A stretch of 63,219 nt of DNA, from positions 1-63,219 of the forward strand of contig JADGQK010000005.1 in NCBI GenBank assembly GCA_017881915.1, in the 5' to 3' direction. This document shows, one piece after another, positions 5,316 to 53,288 of the stretch. The notes under the pieces were generated by a model. The model was not told where the DNA came from. It was given only the letters and a program-made list of their open reading frames with translations, and made no database searches. The DNA comes from Chloroflexota bacterium (GTDB lineage: Bacteria > Chloroflexota > Limnocylindria > Limnocylindrales > CSP1-4). Positions within the stretch are counted from its first letter, which is position 1. The number at the start of each line of letters is the position of its first letter. The position numbers and the translations under genes are program-made.

Positions 5316-5423
5316 GGACGACTCCTCGGTGATGGAGGCCTGGCACGGATCTTCGCAAGCGGCGCCAGGACGGCCGCCCACCGATGGCCGCGCGGTTAGG
5401 CGGCCATCGGTGGTCGACGCCAG

Positions 5424-6866: not shown

Positions 6867-7003
6867 AGTCTCCACTCCTTCACGAACTCACGCTACCTGG
6901 GTCATTGCGTGCTGCTGATCTCGCTGGGCAATCCGCCCAATTCGCACCAATCACCAACTGGTTATGGCTTCCTCCTTCGCACCCAATTGCCCAGACGACG
7001 CGG

Positions 7004-8784: not shown

Positions 8785-8850
8785 CGCCTCTCCTTGTGAT
8801 GGCTCGGACGCCGCGTGTTGGAGCACGCCGATCGTTCTCGTGTGAGGCCC

Positions 8851-15281: not shown

Positions 15282-16271
15282 GTGGACCCAAAGGGGCTGC
15301 CGGACAGACGCCCATCGCATCCGGGCGCGGCAGGGTCTGTGATCGACCAGGTCGTCGAGGTCGCATCGCAGTTCTACGTGCTGCGCCGTACCCAGGTCGA
15401 CATCGCCCACTCCATGGGGCTCGACCCGTCGACGGTCTCGCGCTACCTCAGGCGCGCCCGGGACGAAGGGATCGTGCGGATTGAGATCAGGCCGCCAATG
15501 GATGAGCAGGCGGGGCTCGGGCTTGCGTTGGCCGATCGCTACGGGCTTGCCCGCGCCATCGTTGTCCTGGGCGAGGACCTCTCCGTGGAGGACGTCGCAT
15601 CCGTTGCGGCGGACCACATTGGGGGCTTGCTCCAATCGGGCATGCGTCTCGGCGTTTCGTGGGGCCAGACGCTGTCGGCCGTCGTCCACAGCCTGCCGCC
15701 CGGGATCGTGTCGGACCTCGACATCGCACAGACCGCGGGCGGGCTTGGGAACACGACACCCGGTGTGCAGGGAAGCGAGCTGGTGCGCTACCTCGCCGAG
15801 CTGTACCCGCCCAGCCACGTCCACTACCTGCACGCCCCCGCGATCGTCGACTCGGTCGACATCCAGCAGGCAATCCTTAGCGATAGCTCGGTGCAGGCCG
15901 CCCTCGCCGCCGCCGTGCCCAGCGAGCTCGCGCTGATCGGAATCGGCACGCTCGGGGACGACGCGACGCTCGTCCGAGGTGGCCACCTCTCCGCCGAGGA
16001 CCGGATGCTTCTCCTCGAGCACGGCGCGGTCGGCACCATGAACACGCGATTCTTCGACGACGAGGGGCGTCCAGTCGCCGACCTCGAGGAGCGCACGATC
16101 GCGATCAACTGGGAGGAACTCCGGCGCGTGCCGACGGTCGTGGCGGTCGCGGTGGGAACAGCCAAGTGCCGTGCGATCAGGGGCGCGCTCAAGACTGGCT
16201 GTATTGACATCCTGGTCACGGATGCCCCTACGGCTCGCCTCCTTCTTGAGACTGCGCCAGCGGCTGCCTGA
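15282..16271 (+). CDS. SorC/DeoR-type sugar-phosphate-binding transcriptional regulator (LsrR-like)
   Basis: The HTH is VASQFYVLRRTQVDIAHSMGLDPSTVSRYLRRARDEGIVRIEI, followed by a SorC sugar-binding domain (…GVSWGQTL…IGIG…VGT…VAVAVG..K..AI.GAL..G.I..LVTD). It has a GTG start and is divergent from the lsrK/lsrF operon. Confidence 0.8.
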   Translation: MDPKGLPDRRPSHPGAAGSVIDQVVEVASQFYVLRRTQVDIAHSMGLDPSTVSRYLRRARDEGIVRIEIRPPMDEQAGLGLALADRYGLARAIVVLGEDLSVEDVASVAADHIGGLLQSGMRLGVSWGQTLSAVVHSLPPGIVSDLDIAQTAGGLGNTTPGVQGSELVRYLAELYPPSHVHYLHAPAIVDSVDIQQAILSDSSVQAALAAAVPSELALIGIGTLGDDATLVRGGHLSAEDRMLLLEHGAVGTMNTRFFDDEGRPVADLEERTIAINWEELRRVPTVVAVAVGTAKCRAIRGALKTGCIDILVTDAPTARLLLETAPAAA

Positions 16272-16281
16272 AGAGGCATCA

Positions 16282-16443
16282 AGGGGCAACCCGCCCGAAG
16301 CCATCGAGTCGAGCCTTGAGCGCGCCGAGGAACCGCGCCGCCTCGGCGCCGTCAACGGCGCGATGGTCCGCCGAGAGCGTGGCCGTCATCACCGAACGGA
16401 TGGCGACGGCGTCGTCGACGACAACAGGCCGCCGGACTGCGCG
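16282..16443 (-). pseudogene. Relic C-terminus of a 2-oxoacid dehydrogenase E2 (lipoamide acyltransferase) catalytic domain
   Basis: The reverse frame between stop codons at 16444-16446 and 16279-16281 reads RAVRRPVVVDDAVAIRSVMTATLSADHRAVDGAEAARFLGALKARLDGFGRVAP*. This is the canonical E2 C-terminal block, including the DHRxxDG active-site motif. There is no upstream catalytic domain. It overlaps the TIM-like gene 3' end in another frame. Confidence 0.6.
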
Positions 16444-17207
16444 TCAGCCTCCAGGTCGAGCGGTCGAACGCGGGCGTGGGCGATCCGGGCGAATTCCACA
16501 GGATCGAGGGCTGCTCGCCCGACGAAGAGCCCGTCCACCCCCGGTTGGGCGAGCAGCTCCCGGCACGTGTCGAAGTCGACGCTTCCGCCGTAGATGACCC
16601 GCGGTGCCGCGCAGCCGAGCCGAACGAGATAATCCCGGACCGCCAGGTGGATCGCCGAGACGTGCTCGCCCGAGGCGACGCTTGCACCCGCACCAATGGC
16701 CCAGTACGGCTCGTAGGCCACCACGACCCGGGCCAGCTCGTCCGGCCGGATGGCTCCGAGAATCGCGCCCAGATGGCGGAGGACGACGGCGCGGGCCGTC
16801 GAGGTCGGCATCGCAACGCGTTCGCCGACGCACACGATCACCTCGAGTCCGCAGTGAACCCCCGTGGCGACCTTCCGGGCGATCTGCCGATCTCCTTCGC
16901 CATGATCGCGGTGCCGCTCGGAGTGGCCGACCTCTACGAACCGGCAACCCAGATCAACCAGCATCGGGGCGGAGATGTCGCCCGTATGCGCACCCGAGAT
17001 ACTCTCGTGGACGTCCTGCGCCCCCCACGCAATTGCCGTGCCGGCCAGCTCCTCGCGCGCGACCCACAGGGCAGTGAACGGTGGCAGGACGAACAGATCC
17101 CGATCGTCGATATCGGCGACGAGTGGGACCAACGCCTGGAAGTACGCCCGAGCCTCGGTAGCCGTGAAGTTCATCTTCAGACTCGTCCCGACCAGCTCCC
17201 GGGTCAT
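16389..17207 (-). CDS. tpiA: Triose-phosphate isomerase family protein (paralogue-like; possibly a tetrulose/triose phosphate isomerase)
   Basis: GTSLKMNF carries the catalytic Lys (with Ser where TIM has Asn), VEVGHSERH the catalytic His, and VVAYEPYWAIGAG the catalytic Glu loop. The last roughly 14 residues (…GGLLSSTTPSPSVR) are read out of frame from the E2 relic. The start overlaps the RLP stop by 4 bp. Confidence 0.85.
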   Translation of the reverse strand: MTRELVGTSLKMNFTATEARAYFQALVPLVADIDDRDLFVLPPFTALWVAREELAGTAIAWGAQDVHESISGAHTGDISAPMLVDLGCRFVEVGHSERHRDHGEGDRQIARKVATGVHCGLEVIVCVGERVAMPTSTARAVVLRHLGAILGAIRPDELARVVVAYEPYWAIGAGASVASGEHVSAIHLAVRDYLVRLGCAAPRVIYGGSVDFDTCRELLAQPGVDGLFVGRAALDPVEFARIAHARVRPLDLEADAQSGGLLSSTTPSPSVR

Positions 17208-18397
17208 TGCGGATCGCTCGGCGACAGCGCCTCGTCGATCGCCACCCTGATCGCGCGGGCCCCGGCCTGGGCGCCTCCGGGATGCCCCTGGATCGCGCCG
17301 CCGACACCCAGGATGACGTCGATTCCCGACTGCTGGACCAGCGGCCCGATCATCGCGGCGGTCACGCCGCCGGCGAGCATGGGCATGGCCGGCTTGAGCT
17401 TCCCTCTCGGCTCAGCCAGCCACCTGAGCGTCTGTTCATAGACGCGACGCGGAGTCGAGCGAGCGTACGGCGTGGTCGTGAACACGGCATCCGCTCCGGC
17501 CAGGCGGAGCAGCTTCCCGAACAGGACGGCCTGCCCGATCCCCGTGCTGACGGCTCCGGTAAACACCTCCGCGGCGGCGGTGTGGACCAGGATCGGCACG
17601 CCAAGCTCGCTTTCGACGAGCGCCTGGAACGGATCCAGCCCGACCACGAGCGCATTGACCATGACCGCGTCCGCGCCGCCATCGACGGCCGCCCGGGCGG
17701 TATCGACGAGACGGATCGACCGGTCGGTGACGTTGGCGATGTACCTGGCCCGCTGGCCGGTCTCCTCCGCCACGCGGTCCAGCCGCTCGCGGTACACCCG
17801 CGAGCGCTCGGCAACCCGGTTGAACGGCGCATCCCCGAGCAGCTCGTCATCCTTGATCAGGTCGGCCCCGCCGCGCGCGGTCTGCTCGAGCAGGTTGGCT
17901 CCGACCTTCGGCGAGTACCCCGTACATGGCTTGATCATGTTCAGGAGCAGGGGCCGGTGCCAGACGCCGGTCGTCTGTCGCCAGCCGGCCACGCCCCACT
18001 GCGGCCCGGGAAAGGCTGCCTCGTAGGACGCCGGCAGGTCGATGTCGACGAGTCGGGCGGTCAGCGACGTCGAAGGGTCATTGCCGACGAGCGTGGTCAG
18101 CATCATCGGGAACTGCGGCCCGAAGTTCTCGGTTGGGAAGGCGACCCGCAGGAGCCAGCGAGAGCCGATCGATTCCCCGCCGACCTCGCCCGCCGGCGGA
18201 CCATGGCCAACCTCGACCACCCGGGCTCCGTGCTGGCGGCGCATCCTCGGGCTGATCCCGGGCACGGGCACCCACGTGCCGATGCTCTGACCCGTGGCGA
18301 ACGCGTCGGCCGCCTCCGTCACGTGGTCGGCAGGTAGCTCGGCCAGGTACGTCGCCACGAGTTCCTGCCGCTCACGCCGTGCGGTCATGCTCTCCAC
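17204..18397 (-). CDS. RuBisCO large-subunit-like protein (form IV, RLP)
   Basis: GGADLIKDDELL matches the RuBisCO GxDFxKDDE carbamate/metal motif. NMIKPCTG corresponds to IKPKLG with the second Lys replaced by Cys. ILVHTAAA corresponds to the HIHRA block, with Thr at the position that appears to correspond to the Arg. MLAGG…ILGVGGAIQGHPGG corresponds to the C-terminal phosphate-binding loops. There is no small-subunit gene and no PRK gene nearby. Confidence 0.85.
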   Translation of the reverse strand: MESMTARRERQELVATYLAELPADHVTEAADAFATGQSIGTWVPVPGISPRMRRQHGARVVEVGHGPPAGEVGGESIGSRWLLRVAFPTENFGPQFPMMLTTLVGNDPSTSLTARLVDIDLPASYEAAFPGPQWGVAGWRQTTGVWHRPLLLNMIKPCTGYSPKVGANLLEQTARGGADLIKDDELLGDAPFNRVAERSRVYRERLDRVAEETGQRARYIANVTDRSIRLVDTARAAVDGGADAVMVNALVVGLDPFQALVESELGVPILVHTAAAEVFTGAVSTGIGQAVLFGKLLRLAGADAVFTTTPYARSTPRRVYEQTLRWLAEPRGKLKPAMPMLAGGVTAAMIGPLVQQSGIDVILGVGGAIQGHPGGAQAGARAIRVAIDEALSPSDPQ

Positions 18398-18439
18398 TTC
18401 CGTGATGTCGCACCTGGGACGCCCGAGCGCGGATTTGTC

Positions 18440-19198
18440 CTAGTGCATCCCGCGCCCACCGGCGACGATCAACAGCTCGCCGGTGATGAAGTCGGCATCG
18501 GTCGAGGCCAGGAACGCGGCCGAAGCGGCAACGTCCGCAGGTGTGCCCCAGCGCCCCAGCGCCGTCTCGGCGAGGATCCGTTCGTGCACCTCCGGGTCAA
18601 TGTCTTCCATCATGTCGGTCCTGATCCAGCCCGGGCAGATGGCATTGACCCTGATGTGCGGCCCGAGGGCGAGCGCCATCGCCTTGGTCAGGCCGTTCAT
18701 GCCGGCCTTCGAGGTGACGTACTCGGTGAAGCGCATCGCCGAAGGGTGGTACAGGCCCGAGTTCGACGAGATGTTGATGATCGTGCCGGACTGCTGCGCC
18801 AGCATGATCGGGGCGACCTCCTTCGAGCACAGGTAGGCGCCCTTCAGGTTGATGTCGATCGTCCGGTCCCAGTCATCCTCGGTTGTCTCCAGGACGCCCT
18901 TGGTGACCATCACCCCCGCGTTGTTGACGAGGATGTCGATCCGCCCGAAGCGTTCCATGGTGGCCCGAACGAGGCGCTGGACATCGCCGCTCCTTGACAC
19001 GTCGGCCTGGACCGTGAGGGCGCCAACCCCCGCGGCCTCGATCGCCCGGGCGGCCGCGGCGGCCTCCGGCTCCTTCGAGACGTAGTTAATGGTGACGGCG
19101 GCGCCCTCGTCAGCGAAACGCTGGGCGATGGCCAGGCCGATCCCGCGGGATGAGCCGGTCACGATTGCGACCTTGCCCGCCAGTCGTTGCTCGCTCAT
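18440..19198 (-). CDS. SDR family oxidoreductase (FabG-like)
   Basis: The signatures AGKVAIVTGSSRGIGLAIA, NNAG and S…YVTSK are present. Confidence 0.9.
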   Translation of the reverse strand: MSEQRLAGKVAIVTGSSRGIGLAIAQRFADEGAAVTINYVSKEPEAAAAARAIEAAGVGALTVQADVSRSGDVQRLVRATMERFGRIDILVNNAGVMVTKGVLETTEDDWDRTIDINLKGAYLCSKEVAPIMLAQQSGTIINISSNSGLYHPSAMRFTEYVTSKAGMNGLTKAMALALGPHIRVNAICPGWIRTDMMEDIDPEVHERILAETALGRWGTPADVAASAAFLASTDADFITGELLIVAGGRGMH

Positions 19199-19216
19199 GG
19201 TGCTTCCTCCTAGGGT

Positions 19217-20212
19217 TCAGGTGCCGGCCGCGGCTCCGGACTGGACCACAGAGCGCACGCCCGCCACGATGTCATCGACCTGCGGGACGGATGCTTTCTC
19301 GAGTCCGAGGTTGAACGGGATCGTCGTGTTCCAGCCGGCCACCCGCACGATCGGAGCGCGGAGATGGTCGAAGGCCCGCTCGGCCACGATCGCCGCGACG
19401 TCGCTGCCCACGCCACCCCGCTTGATCGCCTCCTGGGCGATCACCAGCCGGCCGGTCCGGCGCACCGAGTCGAGCACGCAGTCGACATCCATGGGCACGA
19501 GCGTCCGCAGGTCGATGACCTCGGTGGAGATCCCTTCTGCGGCGAGCAGCTCGGCCGCCTGCAGGCTCTTCACGACCATGTGCGACCAGGCGACCAGGGT
19601 GACGTCCGATCCCGAGCGCTTGATGTCGGCCTGGCCGAGCGGAATGAGATAGTCCTCGGCGGGAACCTCGCCGTCGGTCATGTACAGCAGCTTGTGCTCG
19701 ATGAAGATCACCGGGTCATCGTCGCGGATGGCGGACTTCAACAGGCCCTTGGCATCGCGGGGGGTCGCGGGCATGACCACCTTCAGCCCCGGCACGTGGT
19801 AGTACAGCGCCTCGAGGCTCTGCGAGTGCTGGCCGGCCAGCGAGTTCCCGGTCCCGCCCTGGGTGCGCACGACGAGTGGGACGCGGCCCTCTCCGCCGGA
19901 CATGAAGCGGTATTTGGCTGCCTGGTTGACCACCTGGTCCATCGCCTGCAAGAGGAAGTCGATGAACAGGATCTCCACGACCGGGCGCTGGCCTGCGATC
20001 GCCGCTCCGGCGCCAAGCCCGACGAAGCCGGCCTCGCTCAAGGGCGTGTCGATGACCCGGCCCGGACCGAACTGGGCAAGGAGCCCCTCGGTGACCTTGT
20101 ATGAGCCGCCCCGCTCACCGATCCCCTCGCCAACGCAGAACACGGTCGCATCGCGTTCCATCTCTTCCTGAAGAGCGGCCCGGAGGGCCTCCCGGTATTT
20201 CATCGTGACCAT
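19217..20212 (-). CDS. TPP-dependent 2-oxoacid/acetoin dehydrogenase E1 component, beta subunit
   Basis: MVTMKYREALRAALQEEMERDATVFCVGEGIG…GRVIDTPLSEAGFVGLGAGAA..G.RPVVE… is a typical E1-beta / transketolase pyrimidine-binding and C-terminal domain. The start is set at the internal Met with an upstream GGAAGGA SD. Confidence 0.9.
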   Translation of the reverse strand: MVTMKYREALRAALQEEMERDATVFCVGEGIGERGGSYKVTEGLLAQFGPGRVIDTPLSEAGFVGLGAGAAIAGQRPVVEILFIDFLLQAMDQVVNQAAKYRFMSGGEGRVPLVVRTQGGTGNSLAGQHSQSLEALYYHVPGLKVVMPATPRDAKGLLKSAIRDDDPVIFIEHKLLYMTDGEVPAEDYLIPLGQADIKRSGSDVTLVAWSHMVVKSLQAAELLAAEGISTEVIDLRTLVPMDVDCVLDSVRRTGRLVIAQEAIKRGGVGSDVAAIVAERAFDHLRAPIVRVAGWNTTIPFNLGLEKASVPQVDDIVAGVRSVVQSGAAAGT

Positions 20213-20285
20213 GTTCCTTCCGGCTCGGGTGAGCCGACGGGCCGGCTGCCTCGTCCGTCGGCGCTGGTCTGGACGGAGGTCGGCG

Positions 20286-21248
20286 CTACAGCGTCGCGAC
20301 CTCCGCAAGAAAGTCTTCGACCGATGGGTTCGGGCTGGCAGTGGCGAACTCGACGGCCTCGTCGATCAGGCGCTCGACCCGTTCGTCGATCAGCGTGATG
20401 GCGGCTTCGTCGACACCGGCCCGGGCGAGGCGGGCGCGGAGCACGATCAGGGGGTCGTGGGCCTTCCAGCGCTGGAGCTCCTCGGGCGGCAGGTAGAGGC
20501 CCGGGTCGTTCACGTGGTGGCCACCATGGCGGTAGGTCAGGCACTCGACCAGCGACGGCCCCTCGCCGGCTCGCGCTCGACGCAGGGGTTCCTGCATCGC
20601 GCCGTAGACGATCGCGGCATCGTTGCCGTCGACGGTCACCCCGGGCATGCCATAGCCGGCGGCGCGCTGGGACAGGTGTTCGACGCGGGCCGAGTCCCGG
20701 ATCGGAGTGGAGACGGCGTACTGGTTGTTCTCCAGGACGAAGATCACGGGGAGGTCCCAGATCGCTGCCAGGTTCATCGATTCGTGCCAGATGCCGTTGG
20801 CCGACGAGCCGTCGCTGCAGAATGCCACGACGACTTCGGGACCTTCTCGCTGCTTGATCGCGAGCGCCGCCCCAGCGGCAATCGCCAGTCCGCCACCGAC
20901 GATGCCGTTCGCCCCGAGGTTCCGGACCGATCGACTCGCGACGTGCATCGATCCGCCCCGCCCCCGGCAGTACCCGGACTCCTTGCCGAACAGCTCCGCC
21001 ATCATCCGCCTGGGCTCGTGCCCCTTCGCCAGCGCATGCCCGTGACCGCGATGGGTGCTCACGATGTAGTCATCGGGCTCGATGGCGGCCATCGCACCGA
21101 CTGCGATCGCCTCCTCGCCCAGGTAGGGATGGAAGTAGCCGCGGATGTTCCCCAGGCGGTACTGCGCGATGGCCTGTTGCTCGAACCTTCGGATCGTCTC
21201 CGTCATCTCGTACATGGACAGGAGCAGGTCCGCCCCGATCTCGCTCAT
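20286..21248 (-). CDS. TPP-dependent 2-oxoacid/acetoin dehydrogenase E1 component, alpha subunit
   Basis: The E1-alpha TPP-binding pattern is present: …RRFEQQAIAQYRLGNIRGYFHPYLGEEAIAVG…STHRGHGHALAKG…GSMH…FCSDGSSANGIWHESMNLAAIWDLPVIFVLENNQYA. Confidence 0.9.
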   Translation of the reverse strand: MSEIGADLLLSMYEMTETIRRFEQQAIAQYRLGNIRGYFHPYLGEEAIAVGAMAAIEPDDYIVSTHRGHGHALAKGHEPRRMMAELFGKESGYCRGRGGSMHVASRSVRNLGANGIVGGGLAIAAGAALAIKQREGPEVVVAFCSDGSSANGIWHESMNLAAIWDLPVIFVLENNQYAVSTPIRDSARVEHLSQRAAGYGMPGVTVDGNDAAIVYGAMQEPLRRARAGEGPSLVECLTYRHGGHHVNDPGLYLPPEELQRWKAHDPLIVLRARLARAGVDEAAITLIDERVERLIDEAVEFATASPNPSVEDFLAEVATL

Positions 21249-21281: not shown

Positions 21282-22220
21282 TCAGTATTCGGGAACGACC
21301 CGGCCGGCCATCACGTCCAGCTGGATCTGCTCCACCTCTGCGCCGTCGATCGAGGCGGTGACCGCGCCGAGCACGCCGGCGTCGACGCTCCGCCCGACAA
21401 GCACCGCCCGCGTGTCCCGATCACCGACCCGTTCGCGAACGGCCGGCGAGAGCGGCCGATCAAGCACCCCGTCGGGCCACCTGACCCGCATCTCGTCGAT
21501 CGTCCACACGGCGGCATCGCCGTGCCCTTCCCCAAGCAGCCGGGCGATCTGGACGCCCATGGCCGGCAGCAGGTGAACATCGGCCCCGCTGAATTCCAGG
21601 GAAGTCAGGAGTTGCTGGTCGGCCGAATGGCGGTCGACGATGACCCGCAGCGGGTGCGAGTCCGTTCCCGTCGACGTATAGAACACCCGGTGCCCGGTGT
21701 TGTAGGTGAGCGGCGGGAGTTCGACGACGACCGAATCATCCGGACTGCACAGCTCCCCGGCTGCGAAGCTCGACATCGCGGCGAGGTGGCAGCGTCCTTC
21801 GCGAACTGCCTGAAGACGCTGTCGGGATCCCCGCACGAAGACGAGGAATACCTCCATCGACTCCCGGGTGAGGATCTGCTTGATCGCGGTCGCGAGCGCC
21901 TCGTAGCGCGGCGACGACGCGAGCGGCAGGGCGATGACGAGCGGCCGCCCGTTCTCCGCGACGGCCCACAGCCGACTGAGCGACCGCCCGATCATGAAGG
22001 CTCCCCGGCGCCCTCGCGTCTCGATGTCGACCGTCCCGGCCTCCTCGAGCCGCCCGATCGCGAAATGGATCGACGAAAGGCTCGAGTGATGCTGGCGGGC
22101 AAGCTCCCGGACCGTCGGCAGTCGGGTCGGTGGCTCGGCCGCGGTCAGGAACTGTCGAGCGAGGGCTGGCACGATGTCGGCGACGGCTCGAGACCGATTG
22201 CGTTCGTAATTGCCAAACAC
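21282..22220 (-). CDS. YhfZ-like transcriptional regulator (GntR-type wHTH with a YhfZ C-terminal domain)
   Basis: ADIVPALARQFLTAAEPPTRLPTVRELARQHHSSLSSIHFAIGRLEEAGTVDIETRGRRGAFMIG aligns by eye with the N-terminus of E. coli YhfZ (…LARYLLGEK…LKTIDELA.E.RSSVG…AL..LE..GAI.IE.RGR.G…). The start is set at the GTG at 22220 (313 aa); upstream of that the long ORF is non-homologous. Confidence 0.7.
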   Translation of the reverse strand: MFGNYERNRSRAVADIVPALARQFLTAAEPPTRLPTVRELARQHHSSLSSIHFAIGRLEEAGTVDIETRGRRGAFMIGRSLSRLWAVAENGRPLVIALPLASSPRYEALATAIKQILTRESMEVFLVFVRGSRQRLQAVREGRCHLAAMSSFAAGELCSPDDSVVVELPPLTYNTGHRVFYTSTGTDSHPLRVIVDRHSADQQLLTSLEFSGADVHLLPAMGVQIARLLGEGHGDAAVWTIDEMRVRWPDGVLDRPLSPAVRERVGDRDTRAVLVGRSVDAGVLGAVTASIDGAEVEQIQLDVMAGRVVPEY

Positions 22221-22657
22221 AATCCGAGGATACGCCCTGAGCGTCCGGGGGTCCAGTCCTCGATGATCGGGAGCTCGGAGAATGTCAGCGCTGGGCACCG
22301 AGTGGCGACCTCGACACCCTTCTCGGCTCGGGTCCCCGCGCTTGACATGCCAGCCTACAATTCCTTTGTTCTGAACTCCGAAACAGAGACCGTGGAGGCG
22401 GCGACGCGTGGTCAGCCGAGTCACGGCCCGCCCGAACTCTGGTGAGGCCGGGAGTGGTCACGCGCCAAGTCACAGGCGGACCGGCACACCCAGGATCGGG
22501 AACGGACGGTTACTGGCCGGATCCCGAGCCGTCCAGCTCAGGTGCTCTCCAACCGCACGTCATCCGTCGGGGTAGGCGGGCGGGGAGCCGTCGGACTCAG
22601 GGCACCGGCCAAACTCAGATCGCCCAGAGTCGAACGAATCGCAAAGGAGCCACGTAC

Positions 22658-23425
22658 ATGGAAAAGCGCTTCGTGGGCAAGGTTGCCCTGGTTACCGGCG
22701 CGACGAGCGGGATCGGGCAGGCCACGGCCGTCCGCCTCGCGGCCGAGGGGGCCGTCGTGGGCGTGAACCAGCGCCCGACGGGCGATCCCAGTGTCACCCT
22801 GCAGTTGATCAAGGATGCCGGCGGCGAGGCGTTCCCGGTGATCGCAGACATGCGCGTTCCGGCGCAGGTGATCGCGATGGTCCACGAGGTCGCCGAGAAG
22901 GCTGGCCGGCTCGACTACCTCGTGTCCAATGCAGCGATCAATCCATTCATGCCCTGGGACAAGACCACTGTCGAGGACTGGGACGAGCTCTGCGAGACGA
23001 ACCTGCGCGGGACCTGGGTGGTCACCACAGAGGCCGCCAAGCAGATGGTCAAGGAGGGCCACGGCGGCGCCATCTGCTGCGTCAGCTCCATTTCGGCCCA
23101 CGTTGGTTCGCCGTTCCAGACCGCGTACTGCGCGACCAAGGGCGGGATCTCCATGTGGGCGAAGGCCCTCGGGTCTGTCGTGGGTGTCCATGGGATCCGG
23201 GTCAATGCGGTCGAGCCAGGCTGGGTGCTGACGAAGATGGCGGCCCCGATGTTCGACGATCCGGCCGCCGTGAAGTACTACGAGGAGCGGATCGCGCTGC
23301 ATCGGCCGGCCGAGCCGAGTGAGCTGGCCGCAACCATCGCGTTCCTGCTGTCCGATGACTCGACCTACGTGACGTCCGCAACGCTGCTCGTCGACGCCGG
23401 CTTTATCGTCAACGCGGAGCTGTAG
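22658..23425 (+). CDS. SDR family oxidoreductase
   Basis: MEKRFVGKVALVTGATSGIGQA, NAA and S…YCATK are present. An AAGGAG SD lies 8 nt upstream of the ATG at 22658. Confidence 0.9.
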   Translation: MEKRFVGKVALVTGATSGIGQATAVRLAAEGAVVGVNQRPTGDPSVTLQLIKDAGGEAFPVIADMRVPAQVIAMVHEVAEKAGRLDYLVSNAAINPFMPWDKTTVEDWDELCETNLRGTWVVTTEAAKQMVKEGHGGAICCVSSISAHVGSPFQTAYCATKGGISMWAKALGSVVGVHGIRVNAVEPGWVLTKMAAPMFDDPAAVKYYEERIALHRPAEPSELAATIAFLLSDDSTYVTSATLLVDAGFIVNAEL

Positions 23426-23457: not shown

Positions 23458-23721
23458 GTGGCTGTGAAAGTCGTCATGCCCCAGGCGGGCCAGGACCTGG
23501 AGACCGGGACGGTCAAGCTCTGGCTCAAGGCCGTGGGCGACACCGTGGCCAAGGGCGAGTCGATCGTCCAGATCGAGACGGAGAAGATCACCCTCGATGT
23601 CGAGGCGCCGGCCGCGGGGGTCCTCCTGAAGATCCTCGTCCCGGATGAGACGGAGACAGCGATCTTCTCCACGATTGCGATCATCGGCCAGCCGGACGAG
23701 GACATCTCCGGTATCGAGTAG
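23458..23721 (+). CDS. Stand-alone biotinyl/lipoyl attachment domain protein (E2 N-terminal lipoyl-domain-like)
   Basis: The 87-aa product reads VKVVMPQAGQDLETGTVKLWLKAVGDTVAKGESIVQIETEKITLDVEAPAAGVLLKI. ETEK occupies the position of the lipoyl-lysine motif ETDKA. The ORF stops right after the domain, with no linker, PSBD or catalytic domain. Confidence 0.8.
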   Translation: MAVKVVMPQAGQDLETGTVKLWLKAVGDTVAKGESIVQIETEKITLDVEAPAAGVLLKILVPDETETAIFSTIAIIGQPDEDISGIE

Positions 23722-23767: not shown

Positions 23768-25303
23768 CTACTCCTGAACGGCTCGAGATAGCGCCTCTTC
23801 CGACAGGTCGCCGGCGGCGGAACGCTCGAGGACGGCGCGCACGGCGTGATCCCGCATGACGAGGACCCGGTCGGCCAATCCGCTGAGCACCTCCAACTCC
23901 GACGAGACCAGCATGACGCCTGTGCCGTGCGCTGCCAGCTCGCGCACCTCCATGAGGATCTCGCGCTTCGAACCGACATCGACGCCGACCGTGGGGTCGT
24001 CGAGGAGCAGGACCCTCGGTGAGGCCGACAGGTTCTTGGCGACAACGACTTTCTGCTGGTTGCCTCCCGACAGGGTCTTCACCGGCGGCTGGAGCCCCTG
24101 CGTGCGGATGCGGAGCTGCTCCACGAAGGAGCCGGCGGCGGTGTTCGCGGCGCGGTCGTCGACGAAGCCGCCGCGCGCATAGCGGGTCCAGGAGGCCATC
24201 AGGATGTTGTGGCCGACGGAGTGCTCCCGTACCAGGCCGGCCCTCCCCCGGTCCTCGGGGACCAGGGCGATCCCGACGCGCAGGGCGTCGGCCGGGTTGC
24301 GGATGTGGGCCGGGCGGCCGCGGAGCTCGACCGTCCCCGCATCCAGCCGGTCGATCCCGAAGATCGCCCGCAGGAGCTCGCTCTTTCCGCTGCCGAGGAG
24401 ACCGGCGACCCCGAGGATCTCGCCCGCCCAGAGCTCGCAGGACACGTCATGGACGCGGCTGTTGCGCAGGCCGGCGACCCGTAGAAGCGGCGGCCCCGTG
24501 CGATCCACGTCGCGTGCCTGGTAGGCGAGTGCGCTCTCGAGCGACTTGCCGAGCATCGCCTCGATCATGGTCGAGAGGGTCACCTCGGAGGTCGGCCCGG
24601 AGAGCGTGACGTTGCCGTCGCGCAGCACCGTGACCCGGTCGCAGATGTCCACGACCTCGTTGAGGTGGTGCGAGATGAAGACGACGGAGATGCCGTGCGT
24701 CGTGAGGTTGCGGATGGCTTGGCTCAGCGACTGGATCTCCGTCGCGGAGAGGGAGGCCGTGGGCTCGTCGAGGATGAGGATGCTCGCGTCCTGGGAGATC
24801 GCCTTGGCGATCTCCACGAGCTGACGCGATCCGACCGGCAGGTCCTCGACCAGGCGGTCCGGGTCGATGTCCGCCCCGACCCGGGCGAGGGCCGCCTGCG
24901 CGCGTCGTCGCACCTCGCGGTCGTCGATCAGTCCGCTCCGGCCGGTGGGCTCACGGGCGAGGAGGATGTTCTGGCCCACCGACATCGATGTGATGAGGCT
25001 GAACTCCTGGAACACCATGGCGATGGCGCGCTTGCCGGCCTCATCCCGGCCCCGCACGACTGCCGGCGTCCCGTTGATCTCCAACTCCCCGGCGTCGCCC
25101 GCGTAGACCCCGTTGAGGATCTTGACCAGCGTGGACTTGCCAGCGCCGTTCTGGCCGACGAGCCCATGCACCTCGCCGCGGTGCAGGGTGAAGTCGACGC
25201 CGTGGAGGACCTCGACCCCGTGGAACGACTTGCGCACGCCGCGCGCGGCCAGCGCGACCGGTCCCGTCGTCGGGCCGACGGGCGCCGTGGGCGAGGCGGT
25301 CAT
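23768..25303 (-). CDS. Sugar ABC transporter ATP-binding protein (CUT2 family, duplicated ATPase, RbsA/LsrA-like)
   Basis: The 511-aa product has two ABC cassettes: Walker A GQNGAGKST, the signatures LSATE…/LSGGNQQK, and the Walker B motifs ILILDEPT and VLLLDDPT. Confidence 0.9.
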   Translation of the reverse strand: MTASPTAPVGPTTGPVALAARGVRKSFHGVEVLHGVDFTLHRGEVHGLVGQNGAGKSTLVKILNGVYAGDAGELEINGTPAVVRGRDEAGKRAIAMVFQEFSLITSMSVGQNILLAREPTGRSGLIDDREVRRRAQAALARVGADIDPDRLVEDLPVGSRQLVEIAKAISQDASILILDEPTASLSATEIQSLSQAIRNLTTHGISVVFISHHLNEVVDICDRVTVLRDGNVTLSGPTSEVTLSTMIEAMLGKSLESALAYQARDVDRTGPPLLRVAGLRNSRVHDVSCELWAGEILGVAGLLGSGKSELLRAIFGIDRLDAGTVELRGRPAHIRNPADALRVGIALVPEDRGRAGLVREHSVGHNILMASWTRYARGGFVDDRAANTAAGSFVEQLRIRTQGLQPPVKTLSGGNQQKVVVAKNLSASPRVLLLDDPTVGVDVGSKREILMEVRELAAHGTGVMLVSSELEVLSGLADRVLVMRDHAVRAVLERSAAGDLSEEALSRAVQE

Positions 25304-25308
25304 CGCCG

Positions 25309-26292
25309 CTACCCCTCCGGCGCTTCGCGGAGGCTCAGGGCCACGGCGACGATGATGATGACGCCGCGGGCGATGTCCTGCTCGGTGATCGAGAAGCCCA
25401 TCAGGATCAGGCCGTTGTTCAGGACGCCCATGACCAGCGAGCCGAGGAGGGCGCCCATGATCGAACCGCGCCCGCCGGCCATGCTCGTGCCCCCGATCAC
25501 GGCGGCCGCGATGACCGTGAGCAGGTCAGTCTCGCCGAGGGTGTACCGGGCGCTGTGCAGGCGACCGACGTACAGCAGCCCGGCGAGCGACGCGGTCACC
25601 GAGCAGATGACCAGCGACGCGATCCGGATGCGGGCCGTGTTGATCCCCGAGTAGCGCGCCGCGATCCGGTTGCCGCCCGTAGCCAGGAGCTGGCGCCCGA
25701 ACGTTGTCTTGCGGTACACGAGATGGGCGACGAGGAGAACTGCAATGGTCCACACGAACAGCGTCGGGAAGGGCCCGATGTTGCCGGACCCGAAGACGAA
25801 CGTGTAGTTATCGTCCAGGACGGGCACCGGCTGGAGGTTGGTGATCCAGCGCGAGAGGCCGCCGATGATCCCGCCCATGCCCAGCGTGATGAGGAACGAG
25901 GGAACCCGGAGCTTGGTCGTCAGCAGGCCGTTGGTGAGCCCTGTGATGACTCCCACGGACAGGCCGGCCGGCACCGCGACGAGCGCGTTCATGTCGCGCA
26001 GGAGGACGGCCGTGACCATGGCGGTCAGCGCGACGACCTGTCCGATCGAGAGGTCGATTTCCCCGGCCGACAGGGCGAAGGTCGTGCCGAAGGCCATCAC
26101 CGAGACGAAGGCGGTCTGGCGCAGCACGTTGAGCTGGTTGTCGATGGTCAGGAACCCGTTGTCGCGCAGGGTGACGGCGAAGAACAGGAAGATGCCGACG
26201 AAGCCGATGTAGACGACCGCGCCGCTCGGCAGGCGCCGCGGGATCCGCAGCCGCCCCCTACCCGGGACGACTGCGCTCTGCCCGTCGCTCAT
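25309..26292 (-). CDS. Sugar ABC transporter permease (RbsC/BPD_transp_2 family)
   Basis: The 327-aa polytopic membrane protein contains …EIDLSIGQVVAL…, typical of CUT2 permeases. Confidence 0.9.
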   Translation of the reverse strand: MSDGQSAVVPGRGRLRIPRRLPSGAVVYIGFVGIFLFFAVTLRDNGFLTIDNQLNVLRQTAFVSVMAFGTTFALSAGEIDLSIGQVVALTAMVTAVLLRDMNALVAVPAGLSVGVITGLTNGLLTTKLRVPSFLITLGMGGIIGGLSRWITNLQPVPVLDDNYTFVFGSGNIGPFPTLFVWTIAVLLVAHLVYRKTTFGRQLLATGGNRIAARYSGINTARIRIASLVICSVTASLAGLLYVGRLHSARYTLGETDLLTVIAAAVIGGTSMAGGRGSIMGALLGSLVMGVLNNGLILMGFSITEQDIARGVIIIVAVALSLREAPEG

Positions 26293-26383
26293 GTGCTACC
26301 ACTCCTGCGCAAGGACGCGAGAGCGCGCGCGGACCTGGTTCGGTCCGCGCGCGCCGTCATGACCCGATCGGTCGGTGGACGGT

Positions 26384-27619
26384 CTACTGGCCCAGTGCCT
26401 TCATGACGTCCGCCGGCGGAGTTGCGTGGAACCCGTCCTGCCACGCCTGGACCAGGTTGTCCCTGGTCACGGCGAGGGCAGGCACCACGATGAAGGGCGG
26501 GACGTCGACGCCGCAGCGCTTGAGCACAGCGGCCTTCACGGTGTTCGCACCTTCGTCATAGGTGTGCTCGATGGCGGTCCCGTAGTAGTTGCTGCCCGCC
26601 GTCGCCATGATGACGTCGTTCGCGGCGTCGAGGTCGTGGGTGACGACCTTGACGTGCTTGTTGTTGGCAGCCTGGAGTGAGGCGAAGACCCCAGCGGCGG
26701 CGCCGCTGTAGGAGATGTAGATCCCGTCAAGATCCGGGTGCTGGGTGAGCATCGCGTCGGTCGCCGCGCCCACGGTGGCCGCGTCGGTGAAGCCGGCCCA
26801 GGCCACGTTCTTCATGTTGGGGTACTTCTGCGCCATCTCGGCGAGGAAGCCCTTCTCGCGGTTGTTGCTGTTGTAGAAGGCGACGTCCAGCTGGATGAAG
26901 CCGTATGTGCCCTTCTCGCCGAGCGCCTTCGCGAGCAGGTCGGCCGCGTCCTTCCCCATCCGGTAGTGATCGCCGGTGCTGATCGTGACGTACTCCTTGC
27001 CGGCGGTCCAACCGTCGACGGGGTTGTCGTAGAACACGATCGTGGTGCCGGCGTCGACGGCGGGCTTGTAGTCCGCCTTCCCCGCTACCGGGTCGACCGG
27101 GATGGTGACGAGGATGTCCGGCTTGCCGGCCATGACAGTCTCGACGGCCGCGGCCTCCTTCGCGGGGTCGAAGTCCGTGGCCGCTGTCATGGTCACGTTG
27201 ATCCCGTACTCGGCGGCCTTCTCACGGACGCCCTTTTCGATGGCCGCCATCCAGGTGTTGCCCGACAGCCCGTTGAGGAAGGCGAGCTTCAAATGGGCGT
27301 TCTTGATCTGCGTCACACACGCGGCGGTCGGATCCGGGACGTCCGCCGCGTTCGTCGAATGCTCGCCGTTCGGCCCCGGCGTGAAGCCGGTGAGGTCGAC
27401 GGACATGGGATCGAAGCCCTTGAAGATGTCGCTCTGCGCCCAAGCCTGGGGCGCCGCGCTGGGGGCTCCGGTCGCGGGGGCTGCGGCCGTCGGGGCCGCG
27501 GCCGTCGGGGCCGCACTCCCAGGGGCCGCGCTCCCAGGGGCGGCGGTCGCCGTGCTCGAGCAACCCGCGATGAGAGCAACGGTCGCCAGCGCCGTGATCA
27601 GTTTCCGCGAACTTCTCAT
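26384..27619 (-). CDS. Sugar ABC transporter substrate-binding lipoprotein (type I periplasmic binding protein fold)
   Basis: The signal and lipobox are MRSSRKLITALATVALIAGCSS, followed by a repetitive Ala/Pro/Gly/Ser linker and then a PBP1 core (LKLAFLNGLSGNTWMAAIEKG…). A GGAGGAG SD precedes the ATG at 27619. Confidence 0.85.
   Translation of the reverse strand: MRSSRKLITALATVALIAGCSSTATAAPGSAAPGSAAPTAAAPTAAAPATGAPSAAPQAWAQSDIFKGFDPMSVDLTGFTPGPNGEHSTNAADVPDPTAACVTQIKNAHLKLAFLNGLSGNTWMAAIEKGVREKAAEYGINVTMTAATDFDPAKEAAAVETVMAGKPDILVTIPVDPVAGKADYKPAVDAGTTIVFYDNPVDGWTAGKEYVTISTGDHYRMGKDAADLLAKALGEKGTYGFIQLDVAFYNSNNREKGFLAEMAQKYPNMKNVAWAGFTDAATVGAATDAMLTQHPDLDGIYISYSGAAAGVFASLQAANNKHVKVVTHDLDAANDVIMATAGSNYYGTAIEHTYDEGANTVKAAVLKRCGVDVPPFIVVPALAVTRDNLVQAWQDGFHATPPADVMKALGQ
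27483..27542. repeat. Two pairs of 15-bp tandem repeats inside the SBP linker-coding region
   Basis: GCGGCCGTCGGGGCC occurs twice (27483-27512), followed by GC(A/G)CTCCCAGGGGC(C/G) twice (27513-27542). These encode AAPGS AAPGS AAPTA AAPTA on the minus strand. Confidence 0.6.
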
Positions 27620-27692
27620 GTGCGTACTCCTCCTCGCCAGTCCTGGACGACGTAGCGGTCGAGTCGCCGGTCGGCCACTCGTTCCGCGATCG

Positions 27693-28421
27693 TCAGTCGT
27701 TGTAGGTGTCCACCTCGAAGGACGAGAACCCGTGGTCCACATTGGTATCCCCCACGCCGAAGTTGAAGCCGATGCCCGGACTGCCCGCGTCGTAGGTGTC
27801 GTCCGTTGCGGATATCACCTCCACGCCGTTGATGAACCCCTTGAGCACGTTGCCGACGATCGTTGCCTCCACCAGGTCCCCATCCTTGACGCCGTATTCC
27901 GGACCGATGAGCTTCTTGAGCGACGTGAAATCGGCGATCCTCCCGTTCCAGCGCACGATCTCTGCGTAGCCACCCTCCGTCTTGAGGCAGCGCCAGAACA
28001 CCTCGTAGCCCGTGCATCGGTGCGCTGTGATCGTGCTGCGCAGGCGGATCTCGACTTCCTGGAAGTACTCGTCCGTCGGGTTCCTGCTGAACACCGTCGC
28101 CTTCCCGTGCTGGTTCTTCCCCCAGGTGCCCGCAAGCACCGCGGTCGGATCGTCGTAGTCGCCCTCGGGAAGAGCGTCGTCAGGGGTCGCAGACTCGAGG
28201 TTGCCTTGCTCGACGCGACGTTCCGCGACGCGCATGCGGGTCCGCCCGCCGTAGGCCACCCCGCTCCTCGTGACGACGTCGACCCAGGCCAGCCCATCCG
28301 TCCCACCGTTGATCCACATCCCGCCCTCCGAGATCGGATCCTCGTCGAGCTCGAAATGTGTGCTGTACGACCGTACTGAAGCGACCCTGGATCCTCGTGG
28401 GTCCATCGGCTGGGCTGTCAT
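27693..28421 (-). CDS. Hypothetical protein (no signal peptide; possibly a beta-sandwich/LamG-like fold), first gene of the ABC importer operon
   Basis: The 242-aa ORF runs from MTAQPMDPRG and has an AGGAG SD about 11 nt upstream. Codon usage is coding-like. I recognise no family. It contains …GMWINGG…YEVFWRC…GFINGVEV…GSPGIGFNFG…. Confidence 0.5.
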   Translation of the reverse strand: MTAQPMDPRGSRVASVRSYSTHFELDEDPISEGGMWINGGTDGLAWVDVVTRSGVAYGGRTRMRVAERRVEQGNLESATPDDALPEGDYDDPTAVLAGTWGKNQHGKATVFSRNPTDEYFQEVEIRLRSTITAHRCTGYEVFWRCLKTEGGYAEIVRWNGRIADFTSLKKLIGPEYGVKDGDLVEATIVGNVLKGFINGVEVISATDDTYDAGSPGIGFNFGVGDTNVDHGFSSFEVDTYND

Positions 28422-28524: not shown

Positions 28525-28792
28525 AGAACAGAACGAGTGTAGTGCCGGTTCGGCGCTCGGGTCAAGGTTAGAAACGGCACGTCGGGCGAGCCACGCCGAC
28601 CGCGCGCGGCGGGCATCTGCGTTCACCGACCGGCCCGGGCGAGAGGGATCGGCATGCCTCGATCGACGTCAGGGCGCCGATGTGTGCCGATGGCCCGTTC
28701 CGTTCCAAAGTCAGAAACATTTCGCTATTATTGGGGCAGTCTCACGTGTCCGAACGCGCCGTGCATGCCCAACGGCTGAAGGAGCGACCAGG

Positions 28793-31339: not shown

Positions 31340-31395
31340 ACGCTGCCCCGGCTGAATTGGGCCAGACAGCCGGGACACGAGAAGGAGAGACCCCG

Positions 31396-35496: not shown

Positions 35497-35501
35497 TTCC
35501 A

Positions 35502-37126: not shown

Positions 37127-37214
37127 CTCCGACCCGCGCCCCTTGCCGGCAATTGACTGAGGTCCGCATGATGAAGGCGTCCCTCGACGACCTCGCAACC
37201 GAAGGAGTTCCGCA

Positions 37215-37685: not shown

Positions 37686-37713
37686 CGCCCGGCAGCAAGC
37701 GGGAGGAGCGGAC

Positions 37714-53236: not shown

Positions 53237-53288
53237 CTGCACAATGAGCTGACGACAAGCTGCCGACGCCCGACCAGAGGAGGACCGG

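Follow-up and report, generated by a model that had tools for sequence, protein, structure and literature searches.

What reaction does a RuBisCO-like protein (RLP) catalyze when its gene lies in one operon with both E1 subunits of a thiamine pyrophosphate (TPP)-dependent dehydrogenase, a short-chain dehydrogenase/reductase (SDR) and a paralog of triosephosphate isomerase (TIM)? Such an operon is found in contig JADGQK010000005.1 of a Chloroflexota bacterium (assembly GCA_017881915.1), and the whole 63,219-nucleotide stretch analyzed here is called the window; its GC content is about 69%, and its nearest relatives are metagenome-assembled genomes (MAGs) of 'Candidatus Limnocylindria/-ales' (Chloroflexota). 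The observation from which the analysis started, referred to below as the original prediction, is confirmed: the operon is a real, conserved, pathway-like context for an uncharacterized RLP clade, and it is apparently undescribed. The partnership of the RLP with E1 and with a TIM of the LerI (L-erythrulose-1-phosphate isomerase) type points to an undescribed route of sugar or polyol breakdown. The RLP itself is predicted to be a non-carboxylating, enolizing member of form IV, nearest to the MtnW enolases yet distinct from them. The model preferred here, in which the RLP would enolize a ketose of the erythrulose-1-phosphate type and feed both a LerI-type isomerase and an E1/lipoyl cleavage, is given a probability of roughly 0.4.

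The operon occupies positions 16389–21248 of the minus strand and holds five intact genes, whose open reading frames (ORFs) are backed as coding frames by the GC content of third codon positions (GC3). Together with the regulator gene in front of them, they follow one another in this order:

21282..22190, minus strand (start approximate, ORF extending to 22424): YhfZ-type GntR-like regulator (PF14503 YhfZ_C, 130.6 bits)
20286..21248, minus strand: TPP-dependent E1 α subunit of the pyruvate dehydrogenase (PDH)/acetoin type (PF00676, 280.7 bits)
19217..20212, minus strand: E1 β subunit (PF02779 and PF02780; PDH E1β subfamily model NF006667, 415.8 bits, above the cut-off of 321)
18440..19198, minus strand: SDR, glucose-1-dehydrogenase/FabG/BudC-like (PF13561, 222 bits)
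17204..18388/18397, minus strand: RLP of form IV, 'NMIKPCTG' clade (PF00016, 124.7 bits, and PF02788, 31.3 bits)
16389..17207, minus strand: TIM paralog with the LerI signature (PF00121, 215.8 bits)

The predicted order E1α-E1β-SDR-RLP-TIM with a 4-bp overlap between the last two genes is borne out by the ORFs, by the domains and by the shared ATGA at 17207–17204, which contains the RLP stop and the TIM start; the remaining intergenic gaps measure 18–73 bp. The regulator gene lies on the same strand, 33 bp upstream of E1α, and is syntenic upstream of E1α in L001–L003 and L088–L090 (L numbers denote the comparison loci, in which genes were called with a simple GC3/longest-ORF caller); its score with NF041241, 184.5 bits, is below the cut-off of 260. 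The operon SDR matches several NCBIfam SDR models, its score for meso-2,3-butanediol dehydrogenase being 212 bits (cut-off 270), and L001, L002 and L089 have this gene as well, whereas L003, L088 and L090 lack it. A promoter and terminator scan of 15–24 kb returned no hits, a result that is uninformative for a high-GC genome.

The RLP aligns over its full length to RLP and RuBisCO structures, which places it in the form IV superfamily. All motifs named in the original prediction were found in the alignments: the KDDE carbamate/metal motif GGADLIKDDELL is kept, IKPCTG stands where IKPKLG is expected (K177 replaced by C), and VHTAAA takes the place of HIHRA (R295 replaced by T and H298 by A). 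The RLP retains a lysine equivalent to K175, together with KDDE and the equivalent of H294, and the distal-phosphate and carboxylase residues are gone; the claim that it is not a carboxylase is upheld by the loss of the equivalents of K177, R295 and H298. Since K177 and R295 are lost, a monophosphate substrate is implied. The equivalents of N123 and K334 are kept in the group 1 RLPs, and that of K334 is lost in an actinobacterial subclade, which is the one with the clearest tetritol context.

The RLP stays outside the characterized subgroups, scoring below every curated family cut-off. Its best curated matches are the MtnW models NF007095 (263.3 bits, cut-off 409) and TIGR03332 (235.5 bits, cut-off 513.6), and the OiaX model NF042437 gives 133.9 bits against a cut-off of 700; relatives reach 192–225 bits with the latter, so that OiaX scores span 134–225 bits and are always under those of the MtnW models. 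Among solved structures, Geobacillus MtnW matches best (E 1e-64, full-length), and identity to the Geobacillus and Bacillus MtnW proteins is 34–35%; YkrW-type chains in the PDB score 187–222 bits, RLP structures of neither the YkrW nor the Photo type only 115 and 97 bits, and Photo-type RLPs and form III are below Geobacillus MtnW too. The clade is marked by invariant NMIKPCTG and GND(P/A)STS, at which positions MtnW has SIFKGxIG and FGK-LS, and NCBIfam (June 2026) holds no model for it. In a neighbor-joining tree, which was midpoint-rooted with few outgroups, MtnW and an Alicyclobacillus RLP fall outside a large clade that holds all 90 fetched loci; the E1-linked Limnocylindria RLPs are monophyletic, and the nearest other Limnocylindria RLPs include a group with the order FGGY-RLP-TIM-RpiB and an MtnX-like phosphatase. 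RLPs at 30–35% identity from Flavobacterium, Sphingobacterium and Kribbella form another family with TIIKPSxG and IHGHRNGWG, and one Bacillota relative within the clade barely exceeds one MtnW model (417.6 bits, cut-off 409). The genome scan of species-representative genomes yielded 373 relatives, and the clade is represented in Chloroflexota from soil, Propionibacteriales from wastewater and Clostridia from human and animal guts. No clade member was found in the plasmid collection, where the top match is an MtnW at 36%. A search for active-site changes common to the E1-linked RLPs across phyla, as would mark convergence, found none.

The neighboring TIM paralog carries GTSLKMN, GHSERH, AYEPYWAIG and FVGRAAL, that is, the subfamily signature together with the catalytic residues K, H and E. 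The corresponding stretches of LerI, known from structure 11ef, are GTSWKMN, GHSERR and FIGRSAW, and the canonical TIM 1yya has GNWKMH and VGGASL at the signature positions; the overall similarity of the window TIM to LerI, 144.7 bits, is no higher than that to ordinary TIMs (~121–162 bits). Among 42 aligned TIM paralogs next to clade RLPs, all but one contain G(T/S)(S/N)xKM and FxGR(A/S)A, the one exception (L007) being a mis-called N-terminus. The LerI signature agrees with the earlier proposal that the TIM-like enzyme handles a triose or tetrulose phosphate.

The neighbors in 81 clade loci were clustered without supervision. The commonest are the TIM paralog (42/81), RpiB/LacAB (34/81) and FGGY kinases (26/81); GlpD-like or G1PDH-like polyol-phosphate dehydrogenases, fused DhaK-DhaL, GatC-type phosphotransferase systems or ABC transporters, and DeoR/SorC/GntR regulators are recurrent too, and some groups add lactonase, UPF0261 and class II aldolase/adducin proteins. 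For instance, the actinobacterial loci L019, L043 and L093 combine an FGGY kinase, a GlpD-like dehydrogenase, a LerI-type TIM, RpiB, a DeoR regulator and an ABC transporter, a combination that equals the erythritol genes of Brucella except that an RLP stands in for EryC. The FGGY kinases beside clade RLPs fall below all curated cut-offs, save a GlpK-like one in L107, and offer no clue to the substrate.

Two further gene groups were observed in these neighborhoods. UPF0261, with a MarK-type kinase domain, and a PEP_hydrolase-like protein (PF09370), the two halves of plant Tm-1, recur beside clade RLPs in L085–L087, L054, L063, L069, L070, L095, L106, L110, L111 and L123, often with a ComB-like phosphatase; the pair looks like a further uncharacterized module, and work published in 2025 (PMC12624787) established UPF0261 as a kinase domain. 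In a sister group within Limnocylindria (L022, L037 and L067), an MtnX-like HAD-IB phosphatase (TIGR01489, 83.4 bits, above the cut-off of 81.55) stands beside RLP-TIM-RpiB, and upstream there is an inositol monophosphatase-like gene, accompanied in L022 by an APC permease and in L037 by a HisC-like aminotransferase; these loci could encode an amino-polyol route.

The survey of RLP-E1 co-occurrence showed that the E1 context is conserved and not a one-off. E1α/E1β genes lie within 10 kb of clade RLPs in about 24 of 115 loci, most of them with a lipoyl protein or E2: about 11 are Limnocylindria contigs, about 11 Actinomycetota (mostly Propionibacteriales) and one a Clostridia MAG. The actinobacterial carriers include Micropruina spp., Tessaracoccus, two Propionibacteriaceae isolates and Branchiibius, and their loci hold FGGY kinases (one GlpK-like), a zinc-dependent alcohol dehydrogenase (Zn-ADH), a class II aldolase, a G1PDH-like iron-dependent alcohol dehydrogenase and a LerI-type TIM; outside Limnocylindria a full-length E2 is present in most cases. 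In the Clostridia MAG (L117), the RLP and E1α genes share a 16-bp overlap; E1β and a 2-hydroxyacid dehydrogenase come next, and further on lie two FGGY kinases, an oxidoreductase of the DXR-like type (PF21135), RpiB and a Zn-ADH. Gene orders differ between the phyla, and the E1 proteins there are 35–54% identical to those of the window. The recurrence of RLP with E1 in three phyla is far above chance adjacency. Two details of L117 may be added: the DXR-like (PF21135 DRL_cat) oxidoreductase at 18096–19403 of the plus strand hints at 1-deoxy-ketose-phosphate chemistry, and an 85-aa ORF after E1β, considered as a lipoyl protein, was rejected as not lipoyl.

The E1 pair of the window has the TPP-binding motif (SDG...NN) of 2-oxoacid/acetoin dehydrogenases, in E1α as CSDGSSANG...ENNQYA, which is invariant among the Limnocylindria relatives. 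E1α scores 339.5 bits with TIGR03182 (cut-off 393.85), and its top solved structure is human PDH E1α (206 bits). As a separate observation, the first glycine of the GDG motif is a serine in the Limnocylindria E1α, and the RLP-linked E1α of Actinomycetota and Clostridia keep GDG. The associated lipoyl and E2 sequences are as follows:

23458..23721, plus strand (divergent): stand-alone lipoyl-domain protein of 87 aa (PF00364, 56.1 bits)
16279..16443, minus strand: relic of an E2 catalytic core, C-terminal ~55 codons (tblastn with the 222-aa PF00198 protein of L081)

The original prediction of E1 cleavage onto a lipoyl carrier stands in its carrier part, a stand-alone lipoyl protein being present with ...SIVQIETEKITLDVEAP... 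and ...IETEKITLDVEAP... in its sequence; the cleavage is a predicted step. An orthologous 87-aa protein adjoins E1 or FGGY2, an FGGY kinase, in every close relative with enough sequence. A lipoyl-bearing E2 with an acyltransferase core is represented in the window by the free lipoyl domain and the relic only. The relic directly follows TIM, overlapping its 3' end out of frame, and is 72.5% identical over 40 aa (E 4e-13) to the L081 protein, which sits after the RLP; its translation, RAVRRPVVVDDAVAIRSVMTATLSADHRAVDGAEAARFLGALKARLDGFGRVAP, ends at a stop codon and keeps the DHRxxDG motif intact (DHRAVDG). In relatives, E2 consists of two separate proteins, the lipoyl protein of 87 aa and a core of 222–237 aa, and intact split cores occur in L001, L003/L081, L088 and L090. 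The relic records a gene replacement or deletion, in which either TIM displaced the core or a deletion took its 5' part. In L083/L084, the same core decays differently, being cut after 64 codons by an insertion sequence (rve_3). A recombinant RLP was also considered as the source of the RLP-TIM junction and rejected, the window RLP being group-1-like over its whole length.

The operon genes are under purifying selection. Pairwise dN/dS against relatives, with dS at 0.5–1.3 and near saturation, is 0.09–0.11 for E1α, 0.10–0.16 for E1β, 0.05–0.21 for the lipoyl protein, 0.13–0.20 for the RLP and 0.18–0.38 for TIM, where 0.38 comes from one partial alignment (L085, 193/272 residues) and all other values are 0.05–0.23.

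RLPs 72–82% identical to that of the window fall into three architectures. In architecture A, an APC permease gene is divergent from YhfZ-E1α-E1β-RLP-E2core, with Lipoyl-FGGY2, three D-serine dehydratase (DSD)-like genes, a cyclase and DUF4432 nearby; in L088 and L090, E1β, RLP and E2 core overlap by 4 bp, and in L088 RpiB and Dak1 also lie near or after the RLP cluster. Architecture B, YhfZ-E1α-E1β-SDR-RLP-TIM-SorC-glyoxalase-...-LsrF-Rpe-DUF4432-cyclase, is that of the window and of L089, a 678-kb contig whose RLP is 72% identical to the window RLP. Architecture C combines UPF0261 kinase, PEP_hydrolase-like proteins, Zn-ADH and a ComB-like phosphatase with Lipoyl-E1α-E1β-RLP-TIM, and is seen in L085–L087, whose RLPs are closest to that of the window. 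Lipoyl, E1α, E1β and RLP are constant throughout, and after them comes either an E2 core or a TIM; the window belongs to architecture B yet carries the relic of the architecture-A E2 core.

The wider cluster supplies further candidate partners:

22655..23425, plus strand: second SDR, divergent from the regulator (PF13561, 187.7 bits)
23768..27742, minus strand: sugar-type ABC transporter with fused ATPase, permease and Peripla_BP_4 binding protein (Pfam)
28790..30241, plus strand: FGGY-family sugar kinase (FGGY2), XylB-like (PF00370 and PF02782; syntenic in relatives)
30254–31339 and 31357–32583, plus strand: two pyridoxal phosphate (PLP) enzymes of the D-serine-dehydratase/D-threonine-aldolase family (PF01168 and PF14031)
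34432..39353, plus strand: SorC regulator, class II aldolase, HAD phosphatase, RpiB, DhaK and DhaL (Pfam)
15282..16271, plus strand: SorC/DeoR-type regulator, LsrR-like, convergent with TIM (PF04198, 188.9 bits)
14457–14978, minus strand: VOC/glyoxalase-family protein of the lsr-like module
13302–14399, minus strand: D-2-hydroxyacid dehydrogenase of the lsr-like module
11744–13309, minus strand: LsrK (626.7 bits, above the cut-off of 528)
10760–11668, minus strand: LsrF (463.9 bits, above the cut-off of 297)
10011–10763, minus strand: Rpe/LsrE-like gene
8851–9990, minus strand: third DSD-like PLP enzyme (Pfam)
7978–8826, minus strand: SDR (Pfam)
7004–7981, minus strand: cyclase-family protein (Pfam)
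5424–6875, minus strand: APC amino-acid permease (Pfam)
4206–5381, minus strand: DUF4432 protein (Pfam)
3234–4166, minus strand: xylose-isomerase-like TIM-barrel epimerase (Pfam)

The second SDR is syntenic at 78–85% identity in L001, L002, L006, L083 and L089. Relative to most relatives, the ABC transporter is an insertion between the lipoyl gene and FGGY2, which directly abut in L001–L003, L088 and L090. FGGY2 is below all curated cut-offs (TIGR01312, 197 bits, cut-off 380), as are the two PLP enzymes at 30254–32583 with the BhcC model (197 and 206 bits, cut-off 690); two to three such paralogs are syntenic in L003, L006, L088 and L090. The genes at 3234–9990 directly flank the RLP in relatives, with synteny to L002, L003, L006, L088 and L090. 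The RpiB-DhaKL-aldolase module predicted downstream is located at 34432–39353 and resembles an erythrulose-kinase/tetrose-phosphate isomerase module, without a TIM paralog of its own; its RpiB passes NF004051 (189.8 bits, cut-off 135) and gives 156.6 bits with the DerI model (cut-off 240). The SorC regulator next to TIM scores 117 bits with the LsrR model (cut-off 486) and holds the same position in L089, where the order TIM-SorC-Glyoxalase-...-DeoC(LsrF)-Rpe also recurs. As claimed earlier, the lsr-like operon lacks LsrG: LsrK and LsrF are present, and the window contains no LsrG-sized coding ORF, so the full trio of the Lsr autoinducer-2 (AI-2) system is incomplete. Alongside LsrK and LsrF, the window has a SorC regulator and an LsrB-type ABC transporter (23768–27742), and LsrG could have a non-orthologous replacement in the VOC protein or in the LerI-type TIM.

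The catalytic scheme preferred here can be outlined from these genes, its substrate, reaction outcome and order of steps being proposals. FGGY2, DhaKL and the SDRs would make a short, monophosphorylated 1-phospho-2-ketose of the erythrulose-1-phosphate type. The RLP, with its carbamyl-lysine/Mg2+ site (KDDE) and the K175-equivalent lysine, would take the proton beside the carbonyl and thereby form a 2,3-enediolate, for which two fates may be considered. In the one, the enediolate would be reprotonated to an epimer or isomer, which the LerI-type TIM would convert to erythrulose-4-phosphate and RpiB to erythrose-4-phosphate; the RLP would then have a role like that of EryC in Brucella erythritol catabolism. 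In the other, confined to the E1-linked lineages including that of the window, E1αβ would cleave the same or a derived product, an acyloin or 1-deoxy-2,3-diketone, and load the fragment onto the free lipoyl protein; in loci with an E2 core the acyl group would then leave as acyl-CoA, and in the window this core is destroyed. The scheme draws on the kept K175/KDDE/H294 core and the lost K177 and R295, the clade neighbors, the LerI signatures, the E1 linkage and the low dN/dS, as well as on the presence of RpiB and DhaKL both in the window and beside the L088 cluster.

Several points weigh against it. The action of E1 on a C4 ketose phosphate is the weak step, its products being glycolyl or phosphoglycolyl units; E1β passes the PDH subfamily cut-off, and E1 could simply oxidize pyruvate. 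Neither an intact E2 nor an E3 is found among the called genes of the window, and the genome could carry an E3 gene outside the window. In relatives, an amino-acid permease and three PLP enzymes point to an amino compound that the scheme leaves unexplained, and the clade contexts with MtnX-like phosphatase, class II aldolase/adducin, lactonase, or UPF0261 with PEP_hydrolase fit an MtnW-like enolase or an OiaC-like decarboxylase equally well. The tree method adds a further reservation, and the activities of all clade members are sequence-based predictions. A bolder version is rather unlikely as a whole: in tetritol/erythrulose pathways other than that of Brucella, the missing enzyme that forms the enediolate, an epimerase or phosphate-eliminase, would be a clade RLP, coupled in several phyla, physically or metabolically, to a split E1αβ/lipoyl/E2-core system that would be the first complex of the 2-oxoacid-dehydrogenase type to cleave a sugar-phosphate-derived acyloin or 1-deoxy-diketone. 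If true, it would provide a direct route from C4/C5 ketose phosphates, possibly including AI-2-type diketones, to acyl-CoA.

Other reactions of the RLP have to be weighed with the same evidence. An MtnW-type enolase, or an enediolate phosphate-eliminase, acting on a sugar-derived 2,3-diketo- or ketose-1-phosphate would give an aci-reductone or 1-deoxy-2,3-diketone, to be handled by E1/E2 in an acetoin- or diacetyl-like cleavage, by the SDRs, by an aldo-keto reductase and by the VOC protein. MtnW is indeed the closest characterized family; MtnX-like, PEP_hydrolase-like and ComB-like phosphatases and the MtnB-related class II aldolase/adducin recur beside clade RLPs; the window has BudC-like SDRs, an aldo-keto reductase, a VOC protein and the DPD (4,5-dihydroxy-2,3-pentanedione)-processing LsrK/LsrF; and the DXR-like (PF21135) oxidoreductase of the Clostridia locus fits as well. 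However, the window contains no MtnB-like gene, the dicarbonyl theme is built on broad families, and the LerI-type TIM and RpiB are explained less well, so this reading is judged unlikely. That the RLP is a true methionine-salvage enolase of 2,3-diketo-5-methylthiopentyl-1-phosphate is a far-fetched assumption, even though MtnW is the top NCBIfam and PDB family and the JGI auto-annotation uses that name: scores of 263 and 235 bits are well under 409 and 514, identity is ~34%, NMIKPCTG and GND replace SIFKGxIG and FGK, and mtnK, mtnA, mtnB, mtnD and mtnX were not found among the scanned called genes of the window; the neighborhood is one of carbohydrate catabolism, with an MtnX-like phosphatase only in the sister Limnocylindria group. 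The RLP might instead be a decarboxylase of a β-keto-acid phosphate like OiaC/OiaX, making L-erythrulose-1-phosphate for TIM and RpiB. The OiaC product L-erythrulose-1-phosphate is, according to what Carter et al. reportedly described in 2018, passed on to LerI and DerI homologs, and a LerI-type TIM and RpiB beside the RLP match this logic; in clostridial relatives there are, in addition, a lactonase and a UPF0261 kinase as well as proteins of the class II aldolase family, the last of which best match a 3-oxo-tetronate-4-phosphate decarboxylase (149 bits, below 250), and the N123 and K334 equivalents are kept in group 1. Set against this are the OiaX scores, far under 700 and always under those of MtnW, clade neighborhoods in which no DUF1537 kinase or ApnO-type oxidoisomerase was seen, and the loss of the K334 equivalent in precisely the actinobacterial subclade with the clearest tetritol context, which leave a decarboxylase distinctly unlikely.

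The E1 and Lsr genes allow two further explanations. The RuBisCO enediolate is known to give phospho-DPD as a side product through β-elimination, and the original prediction named it as a candidate substrate; the RLP would then replace LsrG, acting on phospho-DPD or on P-HPD (phospho-3-hydroxy-2,4-pentanedione) derived from the LsrK product, and E1 or LsrF would release acetyl units. LsrK and LsrF exceed their equivalog cut-offs, no LsrG-sized gene is present in the window, and the lsr-like block adjoins RLP-TIM in the window and in L089, but the Lipoyl-E1-RLP module is kept in at least nine Limnocylindria contigs and about 12 Actinomycetota/Clostridia loci, none of them with an equivalog-level LsrK or with an LsrF, and the proposal is not supported as a general role of the RLP. 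Moreover, the step from P-DPD to P-HPD is formally a TIM/LerI-type shift from a 2-hydroxy-3-keto to a 2-keto-3-hydroxy compound, so the adjacent TIM paralog or the VOC protein could replace LsrG; both are equally good or better chemical candidates for this step in the window, and LsrG replacement by the RLP is very improbable. Co-regulation without chemical coupling is the more prosaic explanation: E1αβ and the lipoyl protein would act as a dehydrogenase of pyruvate, 2-oxobutyrate or acetoin for the D-hydroxy-amino-acid (DSD-like) or dihydroxyacetone phosphate/pyruvate-yielding branches of the same catabolic island, and RLP-TIM would be a separate tetrulose-phosphate branch. E1β above the PDH E1β cut-off and E1α nearest to human PDH E1α agree with this, as does the mosaic nature of the window with its insertions (ABC transporter, lsr-like block, TIM replacing the E2 core); DSD-family enzymes typically yield 2-oxo acids or glycine. 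The translational coupling, with 4-bp E1β/RLP/E2core overlaps in L088 and L090 and the 16-bp RLP/E1α overlap in L117, and the recurrence of the association in three phyla lacking DSD genes argue against it, and we consider it improbable on balance.

The reading preferred here, the enolization of an erythrulose-1-phosphate-type ketose, can be compared with known systems. The few known functions of RLPs are those of enolase, 1,3-isomerase, decarboxylase/transcarboxylase and oxygenase (PMC10176493). Like MtnW/YkrW, the 2,3-diketo-5-methylthiopentyl-1-phosphate enolase (PDB 2oek, 2zvi), the window RLP keeps K98 (K175), KDDE, H264 (H294) and GKL, and K177 and R295 are absent from both; unlike it, the RLP is without methionine-salvage neighbors and is accompanied by a LerI-type TIM, RpiB, sugar kinases and E1/E2. 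The DeepYkr RLP of Rhodospirillum rubrum and Rhodopseudomonas palustris is a 5-methylthioribulose-1-phosphate 1,3-isomerase (PMC5893883). It resembles the proposed enzyme in shifting the carbonyl of a ketose-1-phosphate via enediolates to a 1-deoxy-ketose phosphate of the 1-deoxyxylulose-5-phosphate type, and by analogy such a product is the kind of acyloin that a TPP-dependent E1 could cleave; the window has neither a cupin methylsulfurylase beside the RLP nor an mtnP/mtnA context, the comparison being one of gene context. The apiose RLPs OiaC/OiaT/OiaX (3-oxo-isoapionate-4-phosphate decarboxylase/transcarboxylase) likewise belong to a carbohydrate catabolic cluster, but the OiaX model gives 134 bits against 700 and DUF1537 kinase and oxidoisomerase neighbors are missing, OiaC itself being judged by its description. 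To our knowledge, E1/lipoyl genes are not part of the apiose RLP pathways.

The erythritol pathway of Brucella and rhizobia (EryA, EryB, EryC, EryH = TpiA2, EryI = RpiB) and the tetritol pathway of Mycolicibacterium smegmatis (LerK, LerI, DerI) are similar to the relatives' set of FGGY, GlpD-like, LerI-type TIM, RpiB, DeoR/SorC and ABC genes and to the LerI-type TIM, RpiB and DhaKL of the window. Here, however, an RLP stands where those pathways have the racemase EryC, whose fold is a xylose-isomerase-like TIM barrel; the window is without a GlpD-like EryB, and E1/E2 has no counterpart in either pathway. Acetoin and pyruvate dehydrogenases (AcoABC(L); PDH E1αβ-E2-E3) share the heterotetramer-type E1α/E1β, the TPP motif, the lipoyl domain, an E2 core with DHRxxDG (in relatives) and, in the operon, a butanediol-dehydrogenase-like SDR. 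They differ in that E2 is split here, the RLP lies between E1β and the core, SDG replaces GDG, no E3 is nearby and the core in the window is a relic. The searchable literature contained nothing linking an RLP to erythrulose/tetritol genes, FGGY kinases or an E1/E2 system, and the claim that the E1-RLP context is new is supported by this lack of a match for clade or context.

Assigning the reaction of the clade would add new chemistry or a new pathway to the RuBisCO superfamily; it would show what a TPP/lipoyl E1 does inside a sugar-phosphate operon and may possibly explain tetritol/erythrulose catabolism without EryC in many bacteria. The question is directly testable, as several carriers of the module are in culture: Micropruina sonneratiae, Tessaracoccus sp. 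SD287, Pseudonocardia charpentierae, Enterocloster lavalensis, Clostridium lamae and Caproiciproducens galactitolivorans.

In addition, some observations concern neighboring genes. Three fold-type-III PLP paralogs (D-serine dehydratase/D-threonine aldolase/BhcC) travel with the APC permease and YhfZ in the window and in L003, L088 and L090, which suggests a D-β-hydroxy-amino-acid or amino-sugar-acid substrate, and L088 also has glycine-cleavage genes (T, H and P) at a distance of 7 kb. Elsewhere in the window, 60275–60715 (minus strand), 60834–62201 (minus strand) and 54803–55213 (plus strand) are coding-like by GC3 without a Pfam match. An MttB-superfamily methyltransferase gene at 42484–44010 (plus strand) stands beside malic enzyme, and a 667-aa protein with a C-terminal GCV_T domain is encoded at 51239–53242 (minus strand); both probably belong to C1 metabolism of the methylamine or glycine-betaine type, without a connection to the RLP finding.

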